A stretch of DNA of 64,000 nucleotides, taken from contig CACHAK010000005.1 of NCBI GenBank assembly GCA_902577765.1, positions 3,283 to 67,282 on the forward strand, written 5' to 3'. The translations under genes were made by a program, and so were the position numbers. This document shows, piece by piece, positions 7,761 through 42,186 of this stretch. The stretch is from an uncultured Pelagibacteraceae bacterium (GTDB lineage: Bacteria; Pseudomonadota; Alphaproteobacteria; Pelagibacterales; AG-422-B15). A model generated the notes under the pieces. It ran no database searches and was not told the origin of the DNA. It was given only the letters and a program-made list of their open reading frames with translations. Every line of letters starts with the position of its first letter. The stretch's first letter is position 1.

Positions 7761-8280
7761 ATCTAATTATACTGAAATAGAGTCAAAAGCGTTATGGTAC
7801 TTACAAAGATATGCATCAAGCTCAGAAAACTTAAGAAATTATCTAAGACGAAAAGTTAAAGATAGCCATTTAAGTATTAACTCAGAGGAAATTATTAATG
7901 AAATAATCTTTTCATTAGAAAGACAAAAAATTCTTAATGATCAGCTTTTTTCTGAGAGTAAAATCAGGAATTATCTAAATAAGGGTTGGTCACTAAAAAA
8001 AATTGAATTCAAACTTAAGGAACTATACGTAAAGGATAGTATAATTATCGATGCAATACAGAACATCAGAAATTCAGTTAAAAATATTGATCTTATAGCC
8101 GCTTGTAGGTTAGCAAAAAAGAAATCTATAGGACCTTATAGGAAAAATGAACTTACAGAAAAAATAAAAATGAGAGAGCTTGGAGTTTTGTCAAGAGCAG
8201 GTTTTTCATATAACATCGTAAAGAAGATATTATTTGAAATGAGCAAGGAGGAGCTAGAAGATATTTATGATCAAAGATAA
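7750..8280 (+). CDS. recX: RecX family regulator
   Basis: ALWYLQRYASSSENLRNYLRRK, LND..F, LSRAGFSY; alphaproteobacterial RecX pattern. Confidence 0.85.
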   Translation: MKNKSNYTEIESKALWYLQRYASSSENLRNYLRRKVKDSHLSINSEEIINEIIFSLERQKILNDQLFSESKIRNYLNKGWSLKKIEFKLKELYVKDSIIIDAIQNIRNSVKNIDLIAACRLAKKKSIGPYRKNELTEKIKMRELGVLSRAGFSYNIVKKILFEMSKEELEDIYDQR

Positions 8281-9022
8281 AACAATTATTGTTACAGGTG
8301 CCGCAAGAGGCTTGGGACAGAAATATTCCTTTGAATTTGCGAAAGCAGGAGCCAATATCATTTTTGCAGATATATCTGATTGTTCTGAGACAGAAAAAAA
8401 AGTAAGCGAAGTTACAGATAAATTTTTGAGTCTAAATCTTGATGTGACAGATATAAACTCATGCAAAAATATGATGGCGAAGGCTGTTGATAAATTTTCT
8501 AAAATAGATGTATTGGTAAATAACGCCGCACTATATGGCGCTCTTAAAAGTTCAAGATTTGAAGATATTGATCCAGATCAATGGGACAAAGCGATGAATG
8601 TTAATGTCAAAGGACTCTGGAATTGCTGCAGAGCAATATCTCCAATCATGAGAGAAAACAAAAGTGGCTCAATAATAAATATCGCTTCTCTAGCAGCTAA
8701 ATTTGGCATGCCTTACGCTGCAGATTATGCTACATCAAAAGCTGCCGTGATTGGACTTACTCGAGTTATGGCAAGAGAAATGGGAAAAGATAACATTCGT
8801 GTAAATGCAGTAGCACCATCTATGGTAAGAACCGAGTCGGCAAAGGAATTTTTAGGAGAAAAAGCAGAACGTGGTTTTGAGGTTATTTCTAAAGGACAGA
8901 TATTACAAAAGACACTTGAAGTTGATGATATATATGGAACCGTTCTTTATCTTGCAAGTGATCAAAGTAAATTCGTTACAGGACAAACCCTGATGGTAGA
9001 TGGAGGCAGTGTGCTTCTGTAA
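8267..9022 (+). CDS. SDR oxidoreductase (FabG-like)
   Basis: TGAARGLG, NNAA, YATSK, NAVAPS, TGQTLMVDGG. Confidence 0.9.
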   Translation: MIKDKTIIVTGAARGLGQKYSFEFAKAGANIIFADISDCSETEKKVSEVTDKFLSLNLDVTDINSCKNMMAKAVDKFSKIDVLVNNAALYGALKSSRFEDIDPDQWDKAMNVNVKGLWNCCRAISPIMRENKSGSIINIASLAAKFGMPYAADYATSKAAVIGLTRVMAREMGKDNIRVNAVAPSMVRTESAKEFLGEKAERGFEVISKGQILQKTLEVDDIYGTVLYLASDQSKFVTGQTLMVDGGSVLL

Positions 9023-9025
9023 AGA

Positions 9026-9157
9026 ATGAAAAAGAAAAGAAGTAAATTAAAAAGCAATCCTATTGCAAGACAGTTAAGGACAGATAAGTTTAGACCAAAA
9101 AAGGTCGCAAATAAAAAAAAACTTCATGAAAAAAAAAGAATAAAAATTAAATTATGA
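9026..9157 (+). CDS. 43-aa very basic protein with partial ArfA-like core (not in the ORF track)
   Basis: Translated by hand: MKKKRSKLKSNPIARQLRTDKFRPKKVANKKKLHEKKRIKIKL. Fills the gap exactly; its TGA overlaps the next ATG (ATGA). Confidence 0.7.
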   Translation: MKKKRSKLKSNPIARQLRTDKFRPKKVANKKKLHEKKRIKIKL

Positions 9158-9816
9158 CAACCGTTTCAGAGGCCGTAAACAATCGCCAATCAGTTAGAGC
9201 TTTTACAAAAAAGCTGGTATCGAATGAAATACTAGAAAGCCTAATTTATAAGTCTTCTAGATCCCCATCGGGAGGAAACTTACAGCCATGGAGAATATTT
9301 ATAATAAATGGGAACTCGATGAAACGTTTTCTTGAATTTCAGGATAAATGGAAGGGCACAGATACACCTGAGTACCCAATTTATCCTGCAAAACTAAAAG
9401 AGCCTTATAGAACTTCACGGTTTGAAGTTGGTGAACAGTTATATGGTTCTATTGGAATTGAAAGATCAGATTCGCAAGCAAGGGTAGATCAAATGCTTAA
9501 AAATTTCTCTTTTTTTGGTGCACCAGCAGCATTATTCTGTTTTGTAGACCGCCAAATGAACCAACCTCAGTGGTCAGATTTAGGAATGTTCCTACAAACA
9601 TTTATGCTACTTGCTCAAGAAGAAGGAATTGATACTTGTGCACAGGAATCTTGGTCACTTAGGCAGAAAATGGTATCTGAATTTGTTGAAGCTGACTCTG
9701 ATCTCATGTTATTCTGTGGTATGGCAATTGGATATAGAGATGTTTCCTCGCCTTTAAACAATTATAAAACGAATAGAAGACCAGTTGATACCTGGTGTAA
9801 AATTATAGATAAGTGA
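9154..9816 (+). CDS. Nitroreductase family protein
   Basis: RQSVRAF, SPSGGNLQPW, NFSFFGAPA, DLGMFLQTFML. Confidence 0.9.
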   Translation: MTTVSEAVNNRQSVRAFTKKLVSNEILESLIYKSSRSPSGGNLQPWRIFIINGNSMKRFLEFQDKWKGTDTPEYPIYPAKLKEPYRTSRFEVGEQLYGSIGIERSDSQARVDQMLKNFSFFGAPAALFCFVDRQMNQPQWSDLGMFLQTFMLLAQEEGIDTCAQESWSLRQKMVSEFVEADSDLMLFCGMAIGYRDVSSPLNNYKTNRRPVDTWCKIIDK

Positions 9817-10673
9817 CAGAAAAAAAATTTTTTAAATATGATGATAGGAGAATTGCTTACGTAGATGAAGGCGAAGGAGATCCTATAATCTTTTTTCATG
9901 GAAATCCCACATCATCTTTTTTATATAGAAATATAATTAAGAATCTTAAAAATCATTACAGATGTATTGCAGCTGATATGTTGGGCATGGGTGACTCAGA
10001 TAAGTTGGAAAATTCAGGTCATATGTCCTATACCTTTGAATTACATTATAAATATTTATCAGAATTTATTAGAAGCTTAGAATTAACTCAACCAGTTACA
10101 CTAGTTGGTCAGGATTGGGGAGGACCTCTTGCTATTAAATGGGCAAGAGAAAATAATGATAATGTTCGAGGTATTTGCTATTTTGAAACTGTAATTGCAC
10201 CAATTAAGTCAGATGAAATGGTTGAGCCAACTAGAGGACTTTTTCTTATGATTAGATCTGAAAAAGGAGACAAAAAAGTTCTTGAAGAAAACTTTTTTGT
10301 AGAAAAAATGCTCGGAACTGATCCCATAGAACCATTGAGTGATGAGGTTATGAATGAATACAGAAAACCATTTATTAATCCTGGTGAAGATAGAAGACCA
10401 ACATTAGATTGGCCTCGGCAAATTCCAATCGATAATGAACCAATTGAAGTTTATAATGAGGTTAAAGATAATTTGAAATTTATGATGGAAACTAATTTAC
10501 CAAAGTTCCTCATAGTAGGTAATCCTGGAAGAATAATGCCAAAACCCTTAATCGAATTTTGTAGAAAATTTAAGAATCAAAAGGAGATTACGGTAAAAGG
10601 ACACCATTTCCTTCAGGAAGAAGCACCAGACGAAATAAGTGATGGTTTAAAAGACTGGCTAAGCTCAATCTAA
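9813..10673 (+). CDS. Haloalkane dehalogenase (HLD-II, LinB/DhaA-like)
   Basis: FHGNPTSS, nucleophile QDWG, acid YFET, TLDWPRQIP, base GHHFLQE. Confidence 0.85.
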   Translation: MTEKKFFKYDDRRIAYVDEGEGDPIIFFHGNPTSSFLYRNIIKNLKNHYRCIAADMLGMGDSDKLENSGHMSYTFELHYKYLSEFIRSLELTQPVTLVGQDWGGPLAIKWARENNDNVRGICYFETVIAPIKSDEMVEPTRGLFLMIRSEKGDKKVLEENFFVEKMLGTDPIEPLSDEVMNEYRKPFINPGEDRRPTLDWPRQIPIDNEPIEVYNEVKDNLKFMMETNLPKFLIVGNPGRIMPKPLIEFCRKFKNQKEITVKGHHFLQEEAPDEISDGLKDWLSSI

Positions 10674-10674
10674 T

Positions 10675-11904
10675 TTATTTTTCTTCCGCAACGGGATATA
10701 ACTCCATAGAAACTGGAGACGCACGACTACTAACTAAAACAGTGGTACCTTGTTCTTCTAGTGGAACCGCAGTCCTTATTGTCATTCTATAAACTCCAAA
10801 TAGACCCAAACTTGTGTGTATAAGAAATAGGTATATCCAAAATCCAGAGGCGCCGATAACGTCAATCACAAATCCCCCTATGACAGGTCCTAATGTAAGA
10901 CCTATACCGCCTGCCAATTGAAGGCCAGAGCTTGCTGCAACCATTTCCCTTTTTGACAAAAAGTCATTTGTATGAGCAATCGAAAGTGCATAAAGAGGCA
11001 CAGTCAGACCTCCGAATATGAAAGTAATTGCCACGAGAACTGAGAAAGTATTACCAAAAATAAGAGCTAAAATAGAGAAGATACCTGCTAAAAAAGCAAC
11101 AATTACGATAATTGTTCTTCTGTCATACGTATCTGATAAATAGCCGATAAGATACTGATTGAGCGCTCCTCCAATAATAAATGTAAACATAAAAATTGAT
11201 ACTTGCTCAATTGATAGTCCACTTTTTAAACCATATATGGTTCCGATACCCCAAAGAGTTCCATGAGCTAAACCTGTCATCATAGCAGTAATCACTCCAA
11301 GAGGTGATGCTTCGTAAAGCTGTTTGATATTCAAAAACTCGGTAACACTGAAATCTGGCTGTTTACTTACAACAATTAATATTGGAACGAGAGAAATGGA
11401 AATTAGAATTGAAACGAGCATAAACAAAGATGCAGTTTCTGGGTTTGCTATATTTAGAAATAACTGACCTACTGCACTTCCAGCCATACTAACCATCATA
11501 TAAATAGATAAAGCTTTACCTCTATTATTATTTTCTGATAGGTCATTGATCCAACTTTCTGCAACGGTGTACATGCCTACAAAACATATTCCAGATATAA
11601 AACGCATTAAAAACCATCCAAAGAAACTTACATGAATTGAATGCAAGAGAATTGAGATAGAGGCTATTGATGCAAGCGCTGCAAACATTCTTACATGTCC
11701 GACACTTTTTATGCGACGGGGTATCAAGAGGGCTCCAGATAAGAATCCAGCATAATATCCAGTGAGTATAATACCTGCTGATGCAGCAGAGTACCCTTCG
11801 ATTGATGCTCTGACTCCTATCAAGCTACCTTGAAGCCCATTCGCAAGCATTATCATTGCAACACCAAAAAATAGGGCCCACGTTCCCTTAAGCAAGCTGT
11901 ACAT
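10675..11904 (-). CDS. MFS transporter (YcaD-like)
   Basis: About 12 hydrophobic segments; ESWIN, GYLSDTYDRR. Confidence 0.9.
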   Translation of the reverse strand: MYSLLKGTWALFFGVAMIMLANGLQGSLIGVRASIEGYSAASAGIILTGYYAGFLSGALLIPRRIKSVGHVRMFAALASIASISILLHSIHVSFFGWFLMRFISGICFVGMYTVAESWINDLSENNNRGKALSIYMMVSMAGSAVGQLFLNIANPETASLFMLVSILISISLVPILIVVSKQPDFSVTEFLNIKQLYEASPLGVITAMMTGLAHGTLWGIGTIYGLKSGLSIEQVSIFMFTFIIGGALNQYLIGYLSDTYDRRTIIVIVAFLAGIFSILALIFGNTFSVLVAITFIFGGLTVPLYALSIAHTNDFLSKREMVAASSGLQLAGGIGLTLGPVIGGFVIDVIGASGFWIYLFLIHTSLGLFGVYRMTIRTAVPLEEQGTTVLVSSRASPVSMELYPVAEEK

Positions 11905-11927
11905 ATATAAAAATTTATGAAGTTATT

Positions 11928-12425
11928 TCAAAGCCATCTTCTGACGGACTTCTTATAGTCTAAGTAAACATTTCCGAATTCTTTTTCAAGATATTTTTCT
12001 TCTGGAATTATTACTCCATACGTCAATAGCGGTATTGATATAGCTGCACTAATTACATACCACCAGGAGTTGAATGCTAGTCCGCAACTTAATAGAATTA
12101 TAACCATTGCTAAATAAATTGGATTTCTTGAGTATTTGAAAGTTCCGCCAACAAATAATTGATTTTGAACTGATTTTGGGTGAGGGTTTTCTTCATTGTC
12201 AGAAAATATTTTTAAGGTGTAAATAGCCATTAAAAATGAGCAAACTGCAATAATTAACCCGATGATTAAAACTATTATACTTCCCTTAAAGAGGGGTAAA
12301 TGTATGAAAAAACTATCAAGGAGGCTTGATGCTATCAATCCAATCATTAAGGCGTAAGGAGGAAAAAACGTTGTCCTAGCCCCTTGGGCTCTGACTGGTT
12401 TTATAGGATCTTTATTGTTTGCCAT
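11928..12425 (-). CDS. Isoprenylcysteine carboxyl methyltransferase / PEMT-family membrane methyltransferase
   Basis: GGTFKYSRNPIYL, EEKYLEKEFG..Y..YKKSVRRWL. Confidence 0.85.
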   Translation of the reverse strand: MANNKDPIKPVRAQGARTTFFPPYALMIGLIASSLLDSFFIHLPLFKGSIIVLIIGLIIAVCSFLMAIYTLKIFSDNEENPHPKSVQNQLFVGGTFKYSRNPIYLAMVIILLSCGLAFNSWWYVISAAISIPLLTYGVIIPEEKYLEKEFGNVYLDYKKSVRRWL

Positions 12426-12499
12426 ATTTATGTTTAATTAATTGAATTATCTAATTTTTTAAGTTAAACCCACCCTAAATTATTTGACAAGTATAAATT

Positions 12500-12964
12500 A
12501 TGTTTAAGAAAAGACAATCAGTACAGCAAGTTGAAGAGAGCAATGAACTTGCCCCTAAATTTGATGATAATGGTTTGATAGTTGTTACAACAGTTGATTA
12601 TCGAACTAATGAAATTTTAATGACAGGTTTTATGAATGAAGAGGCACTTGAAAAAACTATTACAAAGAAAGAAGCATTCTACTTTAGCAGAAGCCGAAAT
12701 GCCTTATGGCATAAAGGGGCTAAAAGTGGATATACTCAGAAAGTAAAGGAAATCCTAATAGACGATGATCAAGATGCTCTTTGTTTGAAGGTTGATATAG
12801 GAAAAAATGGTGCTAGTTGTCATGTTGGTTATAAGTCTTGTTTTTACCGCGAAATTGACTTAGAAGATACTGCAAATAAGTCTGGATTAAGGTTCACTAC
12901 AGAAGAAAAAGTTTTTGATCCTGATGAAGTTTACGGAGATGAACCTAATCCAACTAAATTATAA
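12500..12964 (+). CDS. hisI: Phosphoribosyl-AMP cyclohydrolase
   Basis: FYFSRSRNALWHKG..SG, DDDQD, SCHVGYKSCFY. Confidence 0.9.
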   Translation: MFKKRQSVQQVEESNELAPKFDDNGLIVVTTVDYRTNEILMTGFMNEEALEKTITKKEAFYFSRSRNALWHKGAKSGYTQKVKEILIDDDQDALCLKVDIGKNGASCHVGYKSCFYREIDLEDTANKSGLRFTTEEKVFDPDEVYGDEPNPTKL

Positions 12965-19180: not shown

Positions 19181-20632
19181 ATGGAAAATAGTAACCATTT
19201 TAATGTAATTGTAATTGGCGCTGGAATCTCTGGTATAGGAGCTGGATACTACTTAAAAAAAAATTGTCCGAATAAATCCTTTTGTATAATTGAAGGGAGA
19301 GAAAACATAGGCGGCACATGGGACTTATTTAGGTATCCAGGAATAAGATCAGATTCAGATATGTTCACACTCGGGTATGCATTTAAGCCGTGGAAGGAGC
19401 AAAAAACAATAGCAAATGGACCTTCCATCTTAAGTTATTTAGAAGAAACAGTTGAAGAAAATAATTTACGCGAAAAAATAAAATTTAGTCATAAAGTCTT
19501 AAGCGCTAACTGGAATTCTGTAGAGCGAAAATGGGAAGTAAGAGCTGCTTATCATGAGCAAGAAATATTATTCACAGCAAACTTTCTATTCATGGGAACA
19601 GGATATTATAATTACGATGAGGGATACACACCTGAATTTGATGACCTAGATAAGTATGAAGGTAAATTAATACATCCTCAGAAGTGGCCTGAAGGCTATG
19701 ACTATACAGATAAGAAAATGGTTGTTATCGGCAGTGGCGCAACAGCAGCAACTATAGTTCCCGAACTATCAAAAAAAGCGAAACACGTAACGATGTTGCA
19801 ACGCTCACCAACATATTATTTTCCAAGTCCAGATGAAGATAGATTTGCAAATTTTTTAAAAAAAGTTTTACCACAAAAAATGTCTTATACTCTTGTTAGG
19901 TTACGAAATGTTTTTTTTCAGCAACTTCTCTACAGAATTTGTAGATCATATCCGAAGTATGTAAAAAGAAAGCTCATCGATGGAGTTAAACAACTATTGC
20001 CTAACCATGATATTTCAAAACATTTTACTCCACGATATTATCCTTGGGAACAGAGAATGTGCCTTATTCCAAATGGTGATTTGTTTGAGTCTATAAGAGA
20101 CAACAGAGCAACGGTTGTTACAGATCACATCGATAAATTTACTAGCAAGGGTATAAAGCTTAAATCAGGTCAAAATATTGAGGCTGATGTTGTCGTAACT
20201 GCTACAGGCTTAAACTTACAATCTTTTGGTGGTGTCCAAGTTCATATCGATGGCAAGTTGGTCGAGCCTTCTGAAACAATGACTTATAAAAGTATGATGT
20301 TCAGTGGAATTCCAAATTTTGTAAATTCTTTTGGTTATATTAATGCATCTTGGACCTTGAAAGCAGATTTAACCTGTGAATATGCTTGTAGATTAATTAA
20401 TTATCTTGATAAGAATAATTACAGTCATTGTGTACCAAGAGTGCCAGTGGATGTGAAAGCTGAAAAAGACTGGCTCGCAACTGAGTTTTCCTCAGGATAT
20501 ATACATCGTGCTATTCATTTATTCCCCCAACAAGGCAGCAGGTCACCATGGATCAATACACAAAATTATTTCAAAGATTTCTTTGGTATTAAATTTGGCC
20601 GATTAAACGACGATTCTATTCATTTTTCTTAA
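19181..20632 (+). CDS. Baeyer-Villiger / flavin monooxygenase (EthA-like)
   Basis: IGAGISG, GGTWDLFRYPGIRSDSD, fingerprint YEGKLIHPQKWP, IGSGATA. Confidence 0.9.
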   Translation: MENSNHFNVIVIGAGISGIGAGYYLKKNCPNKSFCIIEGRENIGGTWDLFRYPGIRSDSDMFTLGYAFKPWKEQKTIANGPSILSYLEETVEENNLREKIKFSHKVLSANWNSVERKWEVRAAYHEQEILFTANFLFMGTGYYNYDEGYTPEFDDLDKYEGKLIHPQKWPEGYDYTDKKMVVIGSGATAATIVPELSKKAKHVTMLQRSPTYYFPSPDEDRFANFLKKVLPQKMSYTLVRLRNVFFQQLLYRICRSYPKYVKRKLIDGVKQLLPNHDISKHFTPRYYPWEQRMCLIPNGDLFESIRDNRATVVTDHIDKFTSKGIKLKSGQNIEADVVVTATGLNLQSFGGVQVHIDGKLVEPSETMTYKSMMFSGIPNFVNSFGYINASWTLKADLTCEYACRLINYLDKNNYSHCVPRVPVDVKAEKDWLATEFSSGYIHRAIHLFPQQGSRSPWINTQNYFKDFFGIKFGRLNDDSIHFS

Positions 20633-22272
20633 GCGTCGGCGGCTTTAGCCATTTCTCTCAGTTCGTATTTTAATATTTTGCCTGTTGAAGTTTTTGGCAG
20701 TTCAGTAAAAACGACTTTTTTAGGACACTTAAAGCCAGCAAGAGTTTCTTTGCAAAACGAAATAATATCGTCTTCACTCACGCTGTCATTTTGATCTTTT
20801 AATTCAATAAAAGCACATGGTGTTTCACCCCATTTTGCATCTGGTTTTGCTACCACTGCGGCAAATAATACAGATGGATGTTTATAAAGTGTATTTTCTA
20901 TTTCAACTGATGAGACATTTTCACCACCAGAGATGATTATATCTTTGCTTCTATCTTTTATTTGAATGTAACCATTAGGATGCATTACAGCCAGATCACC
21001 TGAGTGAAACCAGCCTCCTGCCATAGCTTTATCTGTTTCTTCCTTATTTTTTAAATATCCCTTCATTACACAGTTGCCGCGTATCATGATCTCACCTATT
21101 TCTTCACCGTCATTCTTAACGTGCTCCATAGTCTCAGGGTTCATAATGGCTAGACCATCCATCATCGGAAACTTTACGCCCTGCCTTGATCTAAGCTTTG
21201 ACTGTTCTTCAACTGATAGCTCATTCCATTCATCCTGCCATGCGCATAATGAAATATGTCCGTATGTCTCAGTCAGTCCATAAACATGAGTAACGTCGAA
21301 ACCCATTTTTTGAACCGCTTCTAATGTGGCTGCGGGTGGAGGAGCTCCAGCTGTTACTACATATACTTGTTGAGAGTATTCTCTTTTTTCCTCAGCTGTT
21401 GCTTGTGCTAGAAAATTTAAAACAATTGGTGCGCCACCAAAATGAGTTACTTTATGATCTGCAATAGCATCAAACATATTTTTAGCTGAAACATATCTAA
21501 GGCATACACTTGTGCCTGCTAGGGCTGTAAGCGTGTAGGGATTGCCCCAACCATTACAATGAAACATTGGAACTACCCACATATAAGTAGGATGCATTGG
21601 CATACTAAAAGCAGTAACAGATCCAAGTGCCATCAAGTAGGAGCCTCTATGATGATAGACAACCCCTTTTGGTAATCCAGTGGTGCCAGATGTATAATTG
21701 AGTGCTAGTGATTGCCATTCATCATCTGGTAAACTCCATTCGAGATCACTGTCACCTGTTAAAAGAAAATCCTCATAATTAATTTCTCCTAGATTCTCTC
21801 CAGCTCCCTCAGGATGATTCGCTAGCTCATCATCAATATCTATTACTAGAATTTTATTTTTTATCTTATCGAGTACTTGTTTTATCGTCGGTGAAAGCTC
21901 ATTATCAGTAATCAACGCTTTTGCTTCACCGTGCTCAAGAATATAGCTAATTGTATCTACATCTAATCTAATGTTTATCGTATTTAATACAGCGCCTATC
22001 ATCGGAACACCAAAATGTGTCTCATATATTTCAGGAGTATTAAAACAAAGAACCGCAACAGTATCTCCCTTTCCTATACCTCTTTTAGAAAGTGCGCTCG
22101 CAAGTTGTTTGCTTCTTTTATATGTTTCAGACCATGTAAATTGTTTTTTGCCATGTATAATCGAAGTTTTGTTTGGATAAACTTCCGCTGCTCGTATGAG
22201 AAAACTTAAAGGAGACAACGGTGTAAAATTTGCATCGTTTTTGTCTAAATTTGTATCATACATGTGAGCCAT
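20629..22272 (-). CDS. dmdB: Acyl-CoA synthetase, DmdB-like (3-methylmercaptopropionyl-CoA ligase type)
   Basis: YTSGTTGLPKG, YGLTE, GWFHSGD, PKTSTGKI. The N-terminus MYDTNLDKNDANFTPLSPLSFL resembles SAR11/Roseobacter DmdB as I recall it; substrate is inferred. Confidence 0.6.
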   Translation of the reverse strand: MAHMYDTNLDKNDANFTPLSPLSFLIRAAEVYPNKTSIIHGKKQFTWSETYKRSKQLASALSKRGIGKGDTVAVLCFNTPEIYETHFGVPMIGAVLNTINIRLDVDTISYILEHGEAKALITDNELSPTIKQVLDKIKNKILVIDIDDELANHPEGAGENLGEINYEDFLLTGDSDLEWSLPDDEWQSLALNYTSGTTGLPKGVVYHHRGSYLMALGSVTAFSMPMHPTYMWVVPMFHCNGWGNPYTLTALAGTSVCLRYVSAKNMFDAIADHKVTHFGGAPIVLNFLAQATAEEKREYSQQVYVVTAGAPPPAATLEAVQKMGFDVTHVYGLTETYGHISLCAWQDEWNELSVEEQSKLRSRQGVKFPMMDGLAIMNPETMEHVKNDGEEIGEIMIRGNCVMKGYLKNKEETDKAMAGGWFHSGDLAVMHPNGYIQIKDRSKDIIISGGENVSSVEIENTLYKHPSVLFAAVVAKPDAKWGETPCAFIELKDQNDSVSEDDIISFCKETLAGFKCPKKVVFTELPKTSTGKILKYELREMAKAADA

Positions 22273-23939
22273 TAAAACAATCCCTCTATGTCGCCATTTT
22301 TATTTAAGTGTATAGCATTTGCAGCTGGAACTCTAGGCAGACCTGGCATAGTCATAATCTTATCGCATACAACTACAAGAAATTCTGCACCCGCTGCTAG
22401 TCTAACTTCTCTGATAGGAACTACATGGTCTTTTGGAGCGCCTCTTAGATTTGGATCAGTTGAGAAGCTGTATTGAGTTTTAGCTACACATATTGGGTAA
22501 TGGCCATATTTTTCCTCCAAGTCGTCAAACTGCATTCTTATTTTTTTGTCAGCAATAATATCGCTCGCTCCATATATTTCTTGTGCAATTTTTTTCATCT
22601 TATCCCACAATTTCATTTCGTCCGGATACAGGTGCTTTATCTTTGGAGCATTTTGCTCAGTAATTTCTACTATGTGCTTTGCTAGGTCCTCTGTGCCTGC
22701 ACCACCATTGCTCCAATGTGTGCAATTAAATGACTTTACATTTAATGAGTCACAGCAATTGCTGATTGCTGATAATTCTTTTTCACTGTCAGATATGAAA
22801 TGATTAATAGCAACTGTAACAGGCGCCCCATACATTTGCATATTTGCAATGTGCTGCTTTAAATTTGATAAACCTTTTTTTACAGCTTCAACATTTTCAT
22901 TTTTTAATTCTTTTTTATCCATACCGCCATGCATTTTTAAAGCTCGAACTGTTGCAACTATTACTATTGCTGAAGGATTTAATTTTCCTTTACGGCATTT
23001 TATGTCTAAAAATTTTTCTGCTCCAAGATCTGCACCAAAGCCTGCTTCTGTTACAACATAATCACTTAATTTAAGAGCAGTTTGAGTAGCAACTAAAGAA
23101 TTACATCCATGGGCAATATTTGCAAAAGGACCCCCATGAATGATAGCAGGATTTTTCTCCAGTGTTTGAACAAGATTAGGTAAGAAAGCATCTTTTAGCA
23201 AAGTAGTCATCGCGCCATCTGCATTTAAGTCTCGCGCCGTAATTTCTTTCTTCTCCCTTGTATAACCAACAATGATATTCCCAAGTCTATTTTGTAAATC
23301 GTCTAAACTTGTAGATAAACAAAAAATTGCCATCACTTCAGATGCAACAGTAATATCGAATTTATCCTCACGTGGGTATCCGTTGGCTATACCGCCTAAA
23401 TTAACATTAATATTTCTTAAAGCACGATCATTTAAATCTACAACACGTCCCCAAACCACTCTTCTTGTATCAATTCCTAAATCGTTTCCCCAATAAATAT
23501 GGTTATCAATCATCGATGCAAGGAGGTTATGTGCTGATGTGATCGCATGGAAATCACCCGTGAAATGTAAATTAATTTTATCCATTGGTACTACTTGGGC
23601 GTAACCGCCTCCTGCAGCACCCCCTTTGACACCAAAGCAAGGTCCTAAACTAGGTTCTCTCAAGCATACCAATGACTGTTTTCCAATTTTATTTAAGCCA
23701 TCACTAAGACCGACTGATGTAGTAGTCTTTCCTTCGCCCGCTGGGGTAGGTGAAATGGCTGTCACTAAAATGAGTTTTCCGTTCTTGTTATTACCTTCTA
23801 TATGTTGAGTATCAATTTTAGCAATATGGTGTCCAAATTTTTGGAGATTTTGATCTTTTAAGTCTAATTTTGAAGCAATTTCTTCAATAGGAGCCATGCT
23901 ATTTTCTCTAGCAATTTCAATATCTGAGAGTACAGCCAT
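22272..23939 (-). CDS. fhs: Formate--tetrahydrofolate ligase
   Basis: [43 protein letters not shown]. Likely start 23939 (track 23969). Confidence 0.95.
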
Positions 23940-24056
23940 AAATAATACTAATATTAAAAACCTAGACAACTTAAGAACTTTACAGATAGGAGTCTACAAA
24001 AATGTATTGCTATAGAACACATTTTTACTTAAATTTTGTTTTAGGAGACTCAAATA

Positions 24057-24106
24057 GCGCTGCAAAATTAAGCCAAGCAGTGCAATTGAAAATTCGCGTG
24101 GCTTAA
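24057..24106 (+). ncRNA. Candidate cis-regulatory H-type pseudoknot upstream of the metF-like gene
   Basis: P1 GCGCUGC (24057-63) pairs with GCAGUGC (24077-83); P2 UUAAGCCA (24068-75) pairs with UGGCUUAA (24099-106). Confidence 0.4.
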
Positions 24107-24129
24107 GCGGTACACTCATTTACAGCATT

Positions 24130-24870
24130 ATGGGAAATGTAAATTTTTCATTGGAAGTTACTACAAGAACAAATCTGTCTGATTTGCCTAAACTCAATGA
24201 CATTTATATTACATTTTTGCCTGGCACAAGTTATCTTGACGTTATTGAACAAACCAAAGCGTTAGCTAGTGCAGGTTATAATCCCATTCCTCACTTTCCA
24301 GCTCGTTCAATTACTGATTCAGATATGTTAAAATCATATATAGAGCAAGTTAAAGAGGCTGGAGTTAAACAAGTTTTAATAATTGGTGGCGATCGCGATA
24401 TACTAGGAAAATATCATTGCTCGCTTCAACTTATTGAAACCGGATTATTTGATGGAATGAAAATAGGCATTGCTGGTCACCCTGAAGGATCTCCAAATAT
24501 GAGCGATACAGCTATTGAAGAAGCAATGAAATCAAAGGCCCCATTTGCCGATTATATAGTAACACAGTGGACACAAGATACAGACGCATTATCGTCTTTT
24601 ATTTCTGGAGCACCACTTCCTGTTCATGTAGGCGTTGCGGGTCCGGCTTCTATGAAGACGCTAGTTAAATTCGCTGGATTTGTTGGATTAAAGAATACGC
24701 TTAATTTCGCAAAAAAAAATGCATCTAAGATTTTTGATTTATTGACTGTTCAGACACCTGATGATGTAATTCAAGAATTAAAAGAGAACGTTGAACATTT
24801 TCACATTTATGCATTTGGTGGAATAAAAAAAGCAAACGAATGGTTAGAAAAGGAGAACTACTATGTCTAA
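24130..24870 (+). CDS. metF: Methylenetetrahydrofolate reductase-like protein (short marine type)
   Basis: FSLEVT, PHFPARSI, LIIGGD, IAGHPEG, IVTQW, VHVGVAGP. Confidence 0.8.
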   Translation: MGNVNFSLEVTTRTNLSDLPKLNDIYITFLPGTSYLDVIEQTKALASAGYNPIPHFPARSITDSDMLKSYIEQVKEAGVKQVLIIGGDRDILGKYHCSLQLIETGLFDGMKIGIAGHPEGSPNMSDTAIEEAMKSKAPFADYIVTQWTQDTDALSSFISGAPLPVHVGVAGPASMKTLVKFAGFVGLKNTLNFAKKNASKIFDLLTVQTPDDVIQELKENVEHFHIYAFGGIKKANEWLEKENYYV

Positions 24871-26206
24871 AAAAATAGAACATAACACTACTGTTGATCA
24901 AAGCGACAGACATGTTCCTTACAATTTACGCCAAAGTGGACCAACAAAAGTTGAAATGTTGATTTCAACTCGAGTAAGAAAGTCACCATATTGGCATAAG
25001 TCGATGGAGGCAGGATGCTGGAGAGCAACAGTTTATAACCGTATTTATCATCCCAGAGGTTATGTAAAGCCTGAAGATGGTGGAGCAATGGTTGAATATG
25101 AAGCAATTAAAAATCATGTGACTATGTGGAATGTCGCAGTTGAGAGACAAATACGTGTAATTGGTCCAGATGCAGAAAAATTTACAGACTATGTAATTAC
25201 AAGGGATGCCACAAAGATATCACCATTACGAGCTAGGTACGTAATATTATGTAACTATAAAGGCGGAGTCTTAAATGATCCTATTCTCTTAAGAATCTCG
25301 AAAGATGAGTTTTGGTTTAGTTTGTCAGACTCTGATATTGGACTTTATTTACAAGGTGTAAACGCTGATAAAAGATTTGATGTGGAAATTGATGAAATTG
25401 ATGCGTGCCCTGTTCAGATTCAAGGACCAAAAGCCATTGCCTTGATGAAAGACCTAGTGGGTGATCAAGTTGATCTTGATAATATTCCTTTCTATGGTCT
25501 AGCAGAAGTTACAGTTGGTGGAAGAAGTTGTGTGATTTCTCAAACTGGTTTCTCTGGCGAGTCCGGTTATGAAATTTATTTACGAAATGCGACGCTCTAT
25601 GCCGACGATATGTGGGACGCTGTTTTGGAAGCAGGAAAGAAACATAATCTAATGGTTATAGCGCCTGCTCACCACAGAAGAATACAAGCAGGCATATTAT
25701 CTTGGGGTCAGGACTTAGATCATGAACACAATCCTTTCCAATGTAATCTTGGCTATCAAGTTTCTTTATCTGGAAAAGGTGAGTGGGAGAAAAAAGGTGA
25801 TTATATCGGTAAGCAAGCGCTTGAAAAGATGAAGACTGACTTGAAAGATGGTCATAAGCCTTACAAGTTACAATTGGTGGGATTTGAAATTGGAGGCAAA
25901 CCAATTGATGAGTATGCGCCTGATTTTTGGCTTGTGTCTCCTGGTGAAGGTGGAGACCCATGTGGCTTTATTACTTCACCTTGGTATCATCCTGAAAAAG
26001 GGAAAAATATAGCTATGGGTTATATACCTTTTGATGGAACTCTTAATGCAAATGGCTTTCCAAAATGGGAACTAGGTAAAAAATTTAAAGTTCATTTACC
26101 TGATATTTATGCTGATGAGCCAGGAGTACCAGTAGACGCTGTAACAGTTGATGTACCGTTTACTGAGTCTTTCAACGCGAATACAAGAGAAGTTGTAAAG
26201 GGCTAG
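24863..26206 (+). CDS. GcvT-family THF-dependent aminomethyltransferase/demethylase
   Basis: RVRKSPYW, WNVAVERQI, NDPILLR, SQTGFSGESGYEI, RRIQAG; coupled to metF. Confidence 0.9.
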   Translation: MSKKIEHNTTVDQSDRHVPYNLRQSGPTKVEMLISTRVRKSPYWHKSMEAGCWRATVYNRIYHPRGYVKPEDGGAMVEYEAIKNHVTMWNVAVERQIRVIGPDAEKFTDYVITRDATKISPLRARYVILCNYKGGVLNDPILLRISKDEFWFSLSDSDIGLYLQGVNADKRFDVEIDEIDACPVQIQGPKAIALMKDLVGDQVDLDNIPFYGLAEVTVGGRSCVISQTGFSGESGYEIYLRNATLYADDMWDAVLEAGKKHNLMVIAPAHHRRIQAGILSWGQDLDHEHNPFQCNLGYQVSLSGKGEWEKKGDYIGKQALEKMKTDLKDGHKPYKLQLVGFEIGGKPIDEYAPDFWLVSPGEGGDPCGFITSPWYHPEKGKNIAMGYIPFDGTLNANGFPKWELGKKFKVHLPDIYADEPGVPVDAVTVDVPFTESFNANTREVVKG

Positions 26207-26831: not shown

Positions 26832-27977
26832 ATGAATAATCAAGATATAAGCATTGGTAAACTCTCAAGGTTAAAGATCTGGATAACCGATAATCATCTG
26901 TCTGATGATCAATGGTCAAATACAAAAAAATTTATCATCATAAAAATAACTACTGAAGATGGAATTGAAGGTTGGGGAGAAGCATTCTCTATTAATCTTA
27001 GAGAAAAGGGTATTGCGATTATTATAAAAGAGCTATTCAGAGAAATTTCAAATATTCCAAATCTATCAATAAAGTCTTTTTATAATAAAATTTCATTGTT
27101 AAGTGATGGTCACAGAGGTTTAGATTTCAGCTCTGCTACAAGCGCCATTGAAATTGCATTATGGGACATATCAGGGAAGTTAAAAAATCTTCCTTTAAAT
27201 TCTTTACTAACAAAAAGTCCCAAACCAAATGTTCCCATTTATGCTACGTGTTGGAGCGATTTAAAAAAAGACACAAATGACTATTTGAGACAAATAGAAA
27301 AATTTTATGGAGAGAAATATGGGGGGATCAAGATATATCCAATGCTAGATAACGTATCAATTTCAATTCAGTTTGTTGAAAAAGTTAGAGAAATAGTAGG
27401 AGATGAATTACCGCTAATGCTTGATTTAGCTGTACCTAAAGATTTAGATAAGACAAAATCTTTTTTAAAAGAAGTATCGTCATTTAATCCTTACTGGATA
27501 GAAGAGCCTGTTGATGGTGAGAATATAAGCTTACTTACTGAGATCAAAAATGCTTTTAATATGAAAGTTGTAACAGGTGAAAAGCAATCAGGCTTGGTCC
27601 ATTTCAGAGAATTAATACACAGAAATGCAGTAGATATATTTAATCCTGATATTTCAGGTATGGGCGGACTCATTGATATTATCACGATATCAAATGAAGC
27701 ATCAAATAATGGCATCTCTATTTCTCCACATTGCTGGAATTCAATGTCCGTTTCAGCATCTGCGATGCTTCATGTTTGCTCAAGTATTTCTAATTCAGAA
27801 AAGGCTGAAATATTTCCAGATTATATAAACTTTTCAAAGAAATTTTGTGAGTTACCTTTTGATATTGTAGATAATAAAGCACATATAAATAAATCAGCTG
27901 GACTTGGAATAGTTATTCATGAAGATATTTTATCTCGGTTGAGTATTTATTCATTGGATGAAAAGAGTAATGACTGA
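26832..27977 (+). CDS. Mandelate racemase-subgroup enolase-superfamily enzyme (probable acid-sugar dehydratase)
   Basis: GWGEA, SAIEIALWDISGK, LMLD, WIEEP, TGEK, PHC. Confidence 0.85.
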   Translation: MNNQDISIGKLSRLKIWITDNHLSDDQWSNTKKFIIIKITTEDGIEGWGEAFSINLREKGIAIIIKELFREISNIPNLSIKSFYNKISLLSDGHRGLDFSSATSAIEIALWDISGKLKNLPLNSLLTKSPKPNVPIYATCWSDLKKDTNDYLRQIEKFYGEKYGGIKIYPMLDNVSISIQFVEKVREIVGDELPLMLDLAVPKDLDKTKSFLKEVSSFNPYWIEEPVDGENISLLTEIKNAFNMKVVTGEKQSGLVHFRELIHRNAVDIFNPDISGMGGLIDIITISNEASNNGISISPHCWNSMSVSASAMLHVCSSISNSEKAEIFPDYINFSKKFCELPFDIVDNKAHINKSAGLGIVIHEDILSRLSIYSLDEKSND

Positions 27978-29481
27978 ATCAAACTATCTATTTGATGAAA
28001 TATTCAAATCTAACGAAACGAGTCCAAATATTTTTTTGATCAATGAAACTAAAGAGATAAGTTACTTAGAATTCAATGAAATTGTAAATCAAATTTCTAA
28101 TTACTTAATAGATATAAATTTATTACCAGGTGACCGCGTGGCCATACAGGCAGAAAAGAATGTAATTCAACTTGCTACATACGTAGCAACCGTTAAAGCT
28201 GGAGGTGTTTATCTGCCACTCAATACTGGCTATACCCTAAGTGAATTAGAATATTTCTTCAATGACGCCAAACCTAAGGTGATAATTGTCGATGACAAAA
28301 TTCAAAATGAAGTAAAAAACTTAGTGAGCTATTCTTCGGTTTCAATTTTATCATTAAATTTAGATGAAACTGGTTCATTGATTGAGCAGATAAAAAAATA
28401 TCCAAAAAAATTTCAATCTATTAAAAGAAACGAAAATGACTTAGCTGCCATTTTATATACATCCGGTACTACTGGAAAATCAAAAGGAGCGATGCTATCG
28501 CATAGAAATTTGGTTTCAAATTCTGAAGTTTTAAGAAAATTTTGGAAATTTACAGAAAATGATGTTCTTTTACATATGCTACCTATTTACCATACGCACG
28601 GTCTTTTTGTTGCATGTAATCTTCTTGCAATTGTCGGAGGATCAATGATTTTCTTGGAAAAATTTGATGCTGAAAAAGCCTTGCTTTGGATGAAAAGAGC
28701 CACATCCATGATGGGCGTGCCGACTTTTTATACAAGATTGTTGGCAAATGAAAAATTAAATAATGAGTCAGCAAAACACATGAGACTATTTATTTCTGGT
28801 TCAGCACCTTTACTTTCAGAAACCCACATTGAATTTGAAAAAAGAACTGGTAAAAAAATTCTTGAGAGATATGGCATGACAGAAACAAATATGAATATTT
28901 CAAATCCATATGACGGATCACGGAAAGCAGGCACAGTGGGCATACCTCTTCCAGGTATTGAAATAAGAATAGTCAATGAAGAAGGTAAGGAAGTAAAGGT
29001 GGGTCAAATAGGAACTATTGAACTTAAGGGCGAAAATATTTTCAAGGGGTACTGGGGAATGGAAGAAAAGACCAAAGAATCATTTAAAGATGATGGTTTC
29101 TTCATAACAGGTGATCTCGCAAAGAAAGATGAAAATGGCTACTTTACTATTGTTGGTAGAGATAAAGATATGATTATAAGCGGTGGACTAAATGTTTATC
29201 CTAAGGAAATAGAAGATGTGATAAATGAGTTACCAAATATTACAGAGTCAGCAGTTTTTGGTGTTCAACATGATGATTTTGGCGAAGCAGTTGTTGCAGC
29301 AGTAGTGACAACAGATGATAAAAATGATGATAGTCAAATATTGGATTATACAAAAGATAAAATTGCCAAATATAAACAGCCAAAAAAAATAATATTTATG
29401 TCAAATTTACCAAGAAATTCTATGGGCAAAGTTCAAAAAAATAAATTGAGAGAAAATAATAAAAGTTTATTTAAGAGTTAA
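27970..29481 (+). CDS. matB: Malonyl-CoA synthetase (MatB-like)
   Basis: YTSGTTGKSKGAM, LPIYHTHGLFV, ERYGMTET, PRNSMGKVQK. Likely start 27970. Confidence 0.8.
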   Translation: MTESNYLFDEIFKSNETSPNIFLINETKEISYLEFNEIVNQISNYLIDINLLPGDRVAIQAEKNVIQLATYVATVKAGGVYLPLNTGYTLSELEYFFNDAKPKVIIVDDKIQNEVKNLVSYSSVSILSLNLDETGSLIEQIKKYPKKFQSIKRNENDLAAILYTSGTTGKSKGAMLSHRNLVSNSEVLRKFWKFTENDVLLHMLPIYHTHGLFVACNLLAIVGGSMIFLEKFDAEKALLWMKRATSMMGVPTFYTRLLANEKLNNESAKHMRLFISGSAPLLSETHIEFEKRTGKKILERYGMTETNMNISNPYDGSRKAGTVGIPLPGIEIRIVNEEGKEVKVGQIGTIELKGENIFKGYWGMEEKTKESFKDDGFFITGDLAKKDENGYFTIVGRDKDMIISGGLNVYPKEIEDVINELPNITESAVFGVQHDDFGEAVVAAVVTTDDKNDDSQILDYTKDKIAKYKQPKKIIFMSNLPRNSMGKVQKNKLRENNKSLFKS

Positions 29482-41049: not shown

Positions 41050-42186
41050 ATGTCAAAAGGTATTATATACACCCCAAGGATTAGAAAATCACCTTTCTTT
41101 GAAGAGACACTAAAATACGGCGCTACCAATTTTACAACTTATAACCGTATGACGATGCCTGTTGGCTATACGACTCCTGAGGAGGAGTACCAATCATTAA
41201 TAAACGATGTAACATTATGGGATGTGGCAGCAGAGAGACAAATTGAAATTATTGGAGAGGACGCCGCTAAATTTGTTCAGTATATGACGCCAAGAAATCT
41301 ATCAACTTTTAAAGATGGGTTTTGTCGTTACGCATTTATGACAGATGAAAATGGTGGAATCATAAATGATCCATTAATTTTAAAGTTTAATGAAAATAAG
41401 TATTGGCTGAGTATTGCAGATTCTGATGCGATACTATGGTGTAAAGGCGTTGCTTTATCTGGTAAGTTTAATGTTAAAATTTCGGAGCCTGAAGCTTGTC
41501 CGCTTTCATTGCAAGGCCCGCGCGCAAAAGAACTCATGAGAAAAGCTACAAATGATGATCCAGTTATTATGGGATTAAAATATTATCAATTTATCGAAAC
41601 TAACTTATTTGGATTAGATATCGTCATTGCACGCAGCGGTTGGAGTAATCAGTTTGGATACGAAATTTATATAACAAGAGAAGTAGATGGTCCGGCATTA
41701 TGGAATGCATTAATGGAAGCAGGAAAAGAGTTTAAAATTGTACCAAGTTGTCCTAATCAAATAGATAGAATTGAAGCCGGTATGATTTCCCACCAAGGAG
41801 ATACCTCATTAGCTGAGAACCCTTTAGAACTAAACTTACCAAAATTTTATGATCTTGATCAAGAAGCGGACTTTGTAGGAAAAGATGCTCTCTTAAAAAT
41901 AAGAGAAGAGGGCATTAAAAAACAATTCACTGGTTTTAAAATTTCAGGAAAGAAAATTGGTTATAATATGGCAAGAATACCATTGTTTGACAATAACTCT
42001 GAAAAAAAAGGATTTGTAACCAGCTGTATTTATAGCCCAAACTTTGGATGCAATATTGCCTTAGGGTTCATTGATATTGATTTAATTAATTCAGAAGAAG
42101 TTTATCAGATTGATCATGATGGAGAGAAACGAGAAGTTGAAGTTGTCCCTTTACCATTTAGTTCTAGACTCGAAAAAATGGAATAA
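41050..42186 (+). CDS. DmdA-like GcvT-family THF-dependent demethylase
   Basis: RIRKSPFF, TYNRM, LWDVAAERQIEI, NDP, SIADSD, RSGWS...GYEI, RIEAG; RBS AAGGAGA. Confidence 0.85.
   Translation: MSKGIIYTPRIRKSPFFEETLKYGATNFTTYNRMTMPVGYTTPEEEYQSLINDVTLWDVAAERQIEIIGEDAAKFVQYMTPRNLSTFKDGFCRYAFMTDENGGIINDPLILKFNENKYWLSIADSDAILWCKGVALSGKFNVKISEPEACPLSLQGPRAKELMRKATNDDPVIMGLKYYQFIETNLFGLDIVIARSGWSNQFGYEIYITREVDGPALWNALMEAGKEFKIVPSCPNQIDRIEAGMISHQGDTSLAENPLELNLPKFYDLDQEADFVGKDALLKIREEGIKKQFTGFKISGKKIGYNMARIPLFDNNSEKKGFVTSCIYSPNFGCNIALGFIDIDLINSEEVYQIDHDGEKREVEVVPLPFSSRLEKME

Follow-up and report, generated by a model that had tools for sequence, protein, structure and literature searches.

A metF-like gene and a DmdA-family demethylase gene form a conserved operon in SAR11 that may act in glycine betaine demethylation

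The window analysed here, a stretch of 64,000 nucleotides from an uncultured Pelagibacteraceae bacterium (assembly GCA_902577765.1, contig CACHAK010000005.1), contains a two-gene operon in which a short metF-like gene directly precedes the gene for a 447-residue demethylase of the GcvT fold. The latter protein and its orthologues are referred to as AMT, and the 246-residue partner gene as metF-like. AMT belongs to a branch of its own, strongly conserved, within the DmdA family, and the MetF-like protein is closer to the type 4 methylenetetrahydrofolate reductase (MTHFR) S6MTHFR than to other MTHFRs. We lean, by a little, towards an explanation in which the operon encodes a DmdA-family betaine demethylase together with an S6MTHFR-type oxidase, and FolD and Fhs carry the released carbon on to formate. 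The source genome is a low-GC genome of 1.27 Mb from SAR11 (Pelagibacteraceae), placed outside SAR11 subgroup Ia (hereafter Ia), and its assembly is 90.5% complete.

The operon and its conservation in SAR11

The locus is composed of four open reading frames (ORFs) and a structured leader RNA. All four genes are real and lie at the positions, and in the arrangement, given in a preliminary description of this DNA.

20629–22272, minus strand: acyl-CoA synthetase, 547 residues (PRK08162, 867 bits; AMP-binding domains), counterpart of the ligase of the SAR11 dmdB cluster (fadD/SAR11_0248 type)
22272–23939, minus strand: Fhs, formate–tetrahydrofolate ligase, 555 residues from the ATG at 23939 (NF010030, 876 bits, cut-off 652; PF01268, 860 bits)
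24056–24106, plus strand: leader RNA of the metF-like/AMT operon (P1 with covariation, P2 invariant, H-type pseudoknot possible)
24130–24870, plus strand: short MTHFR, 246 residues, relative of S6MTHFR (type 4) and orthologue of SAR11_1264 (PF02219, 29 bits, cut-off 24)
24863–26206, plus strand: DmdA-family putative tetrahydrofolate (THF)-dependent methyltransferase, 447 residues, orthologue of SAR11_1265 (GCV_T, 140 bits, plus a weak C-terminal barrel)

The metF-like gene runs 8 nt into AMT, and an AAGGAG box precedes the start of the second gene, whose immediate neighbours are metF-like and msrA. A divergent intergenic region of 190 bp separates metF-like from fhs. The latter was first called as an ORF at 22272–23969 on the minus strand, with a TTG start at 23969. 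The in-frame ATG at 23939 is the likelier start, since the resulting Fhs of 555 residues matches in length an ATG-start ORF of a relative (L029), the alignment between the two being full-length and gapless, and also agrees with the start of the Pfam profile. The stop codon of fhs and the ATG of the ligase gene have one base in common (TAATG), and the 1-nt overlap noted earlier for these two genes therefore stands.

The pair itself is already known as SAR11_1264/SAR11_1265 of 'Candidatus Pelagibacter ubique' HTCC1062 and is conserved across SAR11. SAR11_1265 was described as a gcvT-like aminomethyltransferase with no substrate assigned, a close relative of dmdA located beside SAR11_1264, a putative metF, with about one copy in each SAR11 genome; its demethylation of methylmercaptopropionate (MMPA) was a speculation of the same study (Sun et al. 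2011, PMC3160333). Both proteins have been detected in HTCC1062, and in stationary phase the two mRNAs drop together to 0.1–0.2 of their exponential level, that is 5–10 fold (Smith et al. 2016, PMC5069961). The drop is seen in sulfur-limited and in control stationary phase alike, and is thus not specific to sulfur limitation (PMC5069961).

Searching 5.8 billion proteins recovered thousands of SAR11 AMT sequences at 83–98% identity, annotated just as "aminomethyltransferase", and cultured Pelagibacter strains carry AMT at 85–87% identity. A scan of species genomes yielded 497 AMT loci, and the SAR11 locus counts given here refer to the best 80 of these 497. The 80 loci are essentially all from Pelagibacterales, with one in a bin labelled Flavobacteriaceae. 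The metF-like gene lies directly 5' of AMT in 76 of them, and the upstream flank is insufficient in the other four. In contrast to this constant pairing, a divergent fhs at the AMT locus is found in 37 loci, all of the window's lineage (79–99% identity), and is missing from all 40 Ia-type loci.

The window pair has the same gene order and orientation as SAR11_1264/SAR11_1265, and is 85% (AMT) and 53–54% (metF-like) identical to its Ia orthologues. It differs from that pair in its 8-nt overlap, in its lineage-specific structured leader and in facing fhs and a dmdB-type ligase gene. The Ia pair faces a Rieske oxygenase gene instead and has no fhs in the flanks examined, which extend roughly 6 kb to each side; in HTCC1062, fhs is SAR11_1285 (Sun et al. 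2011, PMC3160333). At one Ia locus (L085:3958–5190, minus strand) the gene divergent from metF-AMT, in place of fhs, encodes the alpha subunit of a Rieske/ring-hydroxylating oxygenase, for which the best NCBIfam match is GbcA (124 bits, cut-off 670).

A structured leader RNA of the metF-like/AMT operon is conserved in the window's lineage. Its hairpin P1 (24056–24063 with 24077–24084) has three of eight pairs that change on both sides across the lineage, and P2 (24068–24075 with 24099–24106) is an invariant 8-bp pairing between the loop and downstream sequence that would make an H-type pseudoknot. Together, P1 and P2 form standard pairs in 95.7% of cells, compared with at most 44% in slid controls. 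An Rfam search of the leader matched no family and no known riboswitch. The genome has a single copy of the motif, and searches of four further genomes (two of SAR11 Ia and two more of low GC) found none, so that no regulon can be read from it.

AMT and its MetF-like partner

AMT stays below the cut-offs of the profile hidden Markov models of five characterized families. The highest score is for DmdA (NF009133, 236 bits, cut-off 410), followed by Tdm (148 bits, cut-off 1100), GcvT (NF001567, 148 against 300; TIGR00528, 126 against 235.85), DesA (NF047633, 46 against 800) and LigM (NF047885, 37 against 580). On the same DmdA model a true Ia DmdA reaches 624 bits, a third Ia paralogue 390 and another protein of the window 352. 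This last protein, encoded at 41050–42186 on the plus strand, is DmdA-like, has 378 residues and is the best DmdA candidate of the genus.

The closest solved relative of AMT is P. ubique DmdA, both by sequence (159 bits) and by structure. The AF2 model of AMT (pLDDT 89.9) has P. ubique DmdA (3tfh) as its top Foldseek match, with a TMt of 0.94 and an rmsd (root-mean-square deviation) of 2.3 Å; GcvT follows at about 0.89, and LigM lies far below, with a TM of 0.61, an rmsd of about 8 Å and 16% identity. In a maximum-likelihood tree, AMT falls in a 12-row clade (SH-aLRT 100%) nested in a 16-row clade (99%), and both clades stand apart from DmdA as well as from the GcvT outgroups. The subfamily is further marked by a conserved N-terminal extension of about 35 residues with the motif VDQSDRxVPxNLRQSG, by three internal inserts, one of them containing PEDGG, and by a conserved C-terminal tail. 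Alignment and model thus agree with the preliminary description, which had noted that the protein is longer than DmdA or GcvT and extended at its N terminus.

AMT and DmdA (3tfh) have the same three-domain GcvT fold, and the folate-contacting Glu-x-Tyr motif is present in AMT as GYE(I/V)Y. Besides its extension, inserts and separate clade, AMT differs from DmdA in overall sequence (27–30% identity) and at one substrate contact. In DmdA, W171 is the Trp reported to contact dimethylsulfoniopropionate (DMSP) specifically (Hernández et al. 2020, PMC7487153). Our check of the DMSP contact rests on this single Trp (numbering of PMC7487153), which is kept in DmdA and in other DmdA-like paralogues, including the 378-residue protein of the window, and is replaced by Phe in AMT and all its close orthologues; one Trp occurs in a more distant branch. 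Given the profile scores, the tree, the fold and this Trp-to-Phe exchange, AMT is not DmdA, GcvT or LigM. A role as the true glycine-cleavage T protein is rejected by the scores below cut-off, by the position in the tree and by the neighbours, which are metF-like and msrA and not gcvH or gcvP. Grouping with GcvT was the outcome named beforehand as speaking against a demethylase; a separate GcvT-fold gene on contig 4 is the one that groups with Ia GcvT. Membership of the LigM/DesA families is likewise rejected by the low scores and the poor match to the LigM fold. By analogy with DmdA, AMT probably transfers a methyl group directly, giving 5-methyl-THF.

The MetF-like protein looks like an oxidase of methyl-THF. 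When it was searched by sequence against solved structures, the only significant match was S6MTHFR (7xg9/7xlf, 122 bits, E 2e-34); the one other entry named as an MTHFR reached 13 bits (E 0.44), and even at E up to 10 no classical MTHFR of bacteria was listed. Its AF2 model (pLDDT 82.6) also has 7xg9 as best Foldseek match, with 32% identity and a TMq of 0.78, whereas classical MTHFRs show 15–18% identity. As judged by these sequence and Foldseek searches, the protein is closer to S6MTHFR (type 4) than to MTHFRs of types 1–3. S6MTHFR of Sphingobium lignivorans SYK-6 oxidises CH3-THF and shows scarcely any reaction with NADH; it is the founding member of the "type 4" MTHFRs, which are coupled to THF-dependent demethylases (Yu et al. 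2025, PMC11868366). The survey in that study was limited to organisms in which homologues of LigM, DesA, CmuAB or Dmt occur, and DmdA and SAR11 are unmentioned. Placing the SAR11 MetF-like protein beside type 4 is a modest extension of the work of Yu et al. 2025.

Several residues of S6MTHFR are retained, and others differ. The catalytic Glu21, Asp107 and Gln175 of S6MTHFR correspond to Glu9, Asp88 and Gln146 of the window protein, and Leu48-Pro49 in loop β2-α3, which blocks NADH, corresponds to Leu30-Pro31. Across 24 SAR11 MetF-like sequences, the Pro of this block is invariant and the Leu nearly so. In addition, the protein keeps Thr11, Thr28, Phe181 (Phe215 in helix α8 of S6MTHFR) and Tyr227; Cys219, also in helix α8, is replaced by Val. 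Within the segment that corresponds to loop β8-α11 of S6MTHFR (Pro268-Phe-Gly-Gly-Leu), Phe229-Gly-Gly is invariant and Leu272 is replaced by Ile; the position of Pro268 is taken by Ala in the window protein and by Thr in Ia, and one distant low-GC genome has Pro there. Orthologues of the MetF-like protein in Ia (L085:5250–5981 and others) have Ser or Gly at the position of the catalytic Asp107 (Asp88 here). Between lineages, the MetF-like protein is only 53% conserved, compared with 85% for AMT.

The 246-residue protein is the sole MTHFR-family match in the genome, and neither MetH nor MetE was found in the 90.5%-complete assembly. HTCC1062 likewise has neither enzyme (Smith et al. 2016, PMC5069961). 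Since neither methionine synthase was found in the assembly, oxidation is the only visible fate of methyl-THF, and the MetF-like protein is predicted from its sequence to oxidise 5-methyl-THF. This lack of another visible fate is also the strongest support for the analogy with the ligM-metF-ligH unit, as which the preliminary description had read the locus. In both systems an MTHFR gene is coupled to the gene of a THF-dependent demethylase and lies near fhs, and both organisms are without a usable methyl-THF-dependent methionine synthase. The logic of THF-dependent demethylase, methyl-THF-oxidising MetF and Fhs therefore holds for the window, with the relation to S6MTHFR as further support, while the demethylase is not LigM-like. 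S6MTHFR exceeds the window protein in length by about 40 residues, and the partner of the window protein belongs to the DmdA family and not to the LigM family.

Gene neighbours and candidate substrate

The distribution of AMT outside SAR11 suggests a substrate. In an even sample of 401 alphaproteobacterial genomes, with a homologue at 50% identity or more counted as positive, AMT is present in 17, including 66–72% identical copies in high-GC genomes of 2.5–5.7 Mb. The gene is thus found across distant alphaproteobacterial families, with 65–70% identity by tblastn and 66–72% over the whole gene in the genome search.

Neighbourhoods were compared at 13 loci outside SAR11 (ten high-GC and three low-GC), with AMT orthologues at 50–70% identity. 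A gene resembling dimethylglycine dehydrogenase (DMGDH) and/or soxBDA lies within 8 kb of AMT in seven of the 13. One locus has a DMGDH-like gene 3' of AMT on the same strand, and in another a GbdR-type AraC/DJ-1 regulator adjoins AMT. Further neighbours are genes of the enolase superfamily, dihydrodipicolinate synthase and aldehyde dehydrogenase. A metF-like gene stands beside AMT at two of the three low-GC loci, and the ten high-GC loci have none in that place.

Among the loci compared here, the proposed betaine pathway takes its most compact form in a 1.4-Mb low-GC alphaproteobacterium outside the SAR11 order (L137, G079:C1:573500–590700). There, at 7975–12709 on the minus strand, a DMGDH-like gene, a metF-like gene (35% identity) and AMT (70%) follow each other on the same strand, with soxA/soxD upstream. 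An enolase-superfamily gene (MR_MLE; L141:11826–12965) lies 2.5 kb from the AMT orthologue of an unrelated high-GC alphaproteobacterium. In the window, an MR_MLE gene coupled to a gene for a MatB-like malonyl-CoA synthetase is located just 3' of the module (26832–29481, plus strand).

Co-occurrence across the 401 genomes agrees with these neighbourhoods. A DMGDH-like gene, a class that also takes in sarcosine-dehydrogenase-type paralogues, is present in all 17 AMT-positive genomes, compared with 124 overall. The BHMT equivalog is found in 59 genomes, 56 of them DMGDH-positive, and never together with AMT, while the overlap expected among the 124 DMGDH-positive genomes is 7.7. The nominal hypergeometric P for this exclusion, uncorrected for kinship, is 1.3e-5, and it becomes 8e-5 with same-genus duplicates collapsed. 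Three families include both AMT-type and BHMT-type genera. GbcA exceeds its cut-off in none of the 401 genomes and is therefore unusable in a test of complementarity. The complementarity of AMT and BHMT is the pattern expected if AMT replaces BHMT at the step from betaine to dimethylglycine, and together with the gene neighbours (DMGDH-like, soxBDAG) it makes glycine betaine the leading candidate substrate. Of the earlier reading of a methyl-THF-yielding demethylase for an S-, N- or O-methyl compound, the O-methyl, LigM-type version is very improbable.

BHMT and the MtgB/corrinoid/MtgA system are proposed as functional equivalents of AMT, with unrelated folds. The net reaction of MtgB–MtgA is betaine + THF to dimethylglycine + methyl-THF, the same as that of AMT if its substrate is betaine. 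AMT differs from both systems in having no detectable zinc-thiolate or corrinoid module.

The CoA ligase, alternative explanations and the proposed pathway

The ligase encoded behind fhs had been called DmdB-like and was thought to activate the acid product of the demethylase. It scores 326 bits on the DmdB equivalog (NF005426), far below the cut-off of 822, and the dmd-cluster ligase of Ia itself reaches only 351. The window ligase and the dmd-cluster ligase of HTCC9565 (SAR11 Ia) are each other's best hits, at 57–58% identity with the next best at 30%, and both belong to the same family profile, PRK08162. In Ia the cluster runs acyl-CoA dehydrogenase (dmdC), ligase (dmdB), hydrolase and dmdA, corresponding to the fadD/mmgC/dmdA cluster of PMC3160333. 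Because of this reciprocal relation, "DmdB-like" is right in the SAR11 sense, whereas membership of the DmdB equivalog falls away. In contrast to DmdB, the window ligase is coupled to fhs and not to dmdA or dmdC. It lies 1.9 kb from the metF-like/AMT operon, and its adjacency to fhs and metF is confined to the window's lineage (37 loci); a search of about 8 kb around AMT at the 13 loci of other Alphaproteobacteria detected no homologue of the ligase, and none was detected near AMT in any other lineage examined. As the adjacency is restricted to one lineage, and the Ia orthologue sits with dmdA and dmdC, the proposed activation of the acid product finds no support beyond adjacency and is not upheld. 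DmdB- and DmdC-type genes persist in the genus, where DmdA exceeds its NCBIfam cut-off in none of 47 genomes.

Most GcvT-fold enzymes make methylene-THF, and AMT could do so in the manner of GcvT or of the DMGDH and Tdm C-terminal domains. It would then capture, as 5,10-methylene-THF, an iminium or formaldehyde unit set free by another enzyme, an oxidase or a Rieske oxygenase, and its adjacency to metF would reflect clustering of one-carbon (C1) genes. The Rieske oxygenase gene divergent from the Ia pair and the high-GC orthologues without a metF neighbour are in line with this, and a sole MTHFR would be needed anyway for any methyl-THF, for example the DmdA product in Ia. However, the two genes overlap by 8 nt, and their pairing recurs in every SAR11 lineage sampled as well as in a distant low-GC genome; the nearest family in both sequence and fold is DmdA, a methyl-THF former; and AMT stands alone, carries no flavin domain and has no oxidase partner consistently beside it. 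We regard this explanation as unlikely, and as the least unlikely of the alternatives. Ranked after it, and also improbable, is that AMT is a second demethylase of DMSP or another S-methyl compound, with the product MMPA activated by the neighbouring DmdB-type ligase. The kinship with P. ubique DmdA fits, and the reading is kept alive by the 47 genomes of the genus, 99–100% complete ones included, that have no DmdA over the cut-off, and by the dmd-cluster ligase orthologue beside the operon. It is opposed by the DmdA score of AMT, far below both the cut-off and the true Ia DmdA, by the Phe that replaces the DMSP-specific Trp throughout the subfamily bar one distant-branch Trp, and by the joint occurrence of AMT and true DmdA in Ia. 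Moreover, the window encodes a closer DmdA relative (352 bits) only 15 kb away, and outside the lineage the recurrent neighbours of AMT are DMGDH-like and sox genes, with no ligase homologue detected nearby.

It is very improbable that AMT is an O-demethylase of aryl methyl ethers, like LigM and DesA, with methoxylated aromatics as its substrates. The gene content of demethylase, S6MTHFR-like MetF and Fhs mirrors ligM-metF-ligH, and 447 residues is near the length of LigM; against this, the LigM and DesA scores are a small fraction of their cut-offs, LigM ranks far below DmdA and GcvT in Foldseek, and the neighbours examined include no gene recognised as one for aromatic ring cleavage. The least probable explanation is the speculation that AMT takes the second methyl group of DMSP as an MMPA demethylase (Sun et al. 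2011). Its kinship with DmdA and similar metagenome abundance (PMC3160333), together with the DmdB-type ligase nearby in the window's lineage, would suit such a role, but a thioether is a poorer methyl donor than a sulfonium, the neighbours in other bacteria are genes for oxidation of N-methyl amino acids, and expression in HTCC1062 shows no response specific to sulfur limitation (PMC5069961).

Several points also weigh against the preferred explanation, a DmdA-family betaine demethylase in one operon with an S6MTHFR-type oxidase. The literature searched for SAR11_1265 or for a THF-dependent betaine demethylase contains no characterisation, and no later paper in it names SAR11_1264 or SAR11_1265. 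In the MetF-like protein three positions of the type 4 motifs are changed, Arg78 (Ser), Cys219 (Val) and Pro268 (Ala), and exchange of Cys219 for Ala reduced the activity of S6MTHFR (PMC11868366). The coupling of metF and AMT is not universal, as the high-GC Alphaproteobacteria are without an adjacent metF-like gene. The co-occurrence test is uncorrected for phylogeny, and sarcosine-dehydrogenase-type paralogues are counted in it. SAR11 Ia carries a eukaryote-like bhmT besides AMT, which the BHMT model used here probably misses. Finally, we know of no described case in which a quaternary amine hands a methyl group straight to THF with neither a corrinoid nor a zinc-thiolate involved.

According to the preferred explanation, AMT would move a methyl group from a small 'onium' osmolyte to N5 of THF, giving 5-methyl-THF; glycine betaine is the most likely substrate and dimethylglycine would be the product. 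The translationally coupled 246-residue enzyme, a putative FAD enzyme of the S6MTHFR type that would exclude NADH, would oxidise 5-methyl-THF to 5,10-methylene-THF. FolD, encoded elsewhere, and the divergent Fhs would then take the carbon to formate with a gain of ATP. With no MetH or MetE, methyl-THF in SAR11 would be left with oxidation as its only outlet. The leader RNA on the operon, and the SAR11 DmdB-type ligase, apparently relocated behind fhs, would be additions specific to this lineage. The narrower proposal, that AMT is a corrinoid- and homocysteine-independent glycine betaine:THF methyltransferase and that its operon in this lineage stands under an undescribed pseudoknot leader, is more tentative, and we put it forward as a possibility that falls short of an even chance.

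Our analysis adds to the known pair the type-4-like assignment of the MetF protein, the orthology of the ligase with its lineage-restricted adjacency, and the support for betaine from gene neighbourhoods and co-occurrence. If AMT is merely another DMSP or C1 transferase, the locus is an ordinary one. Should it instead prove to demethylate betaine in a folate-dependent way, it would supply the first step of aerobic betaine degradation, which is poorly understood, in organisms without BHMT or GbcAB. It would then be an alternative to BHMT and the aerobic equivalent of the MtgB system. SAR11 and many Alphaproteobacteria would then burn the first methyl group of betaine via a dedicated methyl-THF oxidase, and the C1 metabolism that combines a type 4 MTHFR with a THF-dependent demethylase would reach from lignin degraders to marine plankton.

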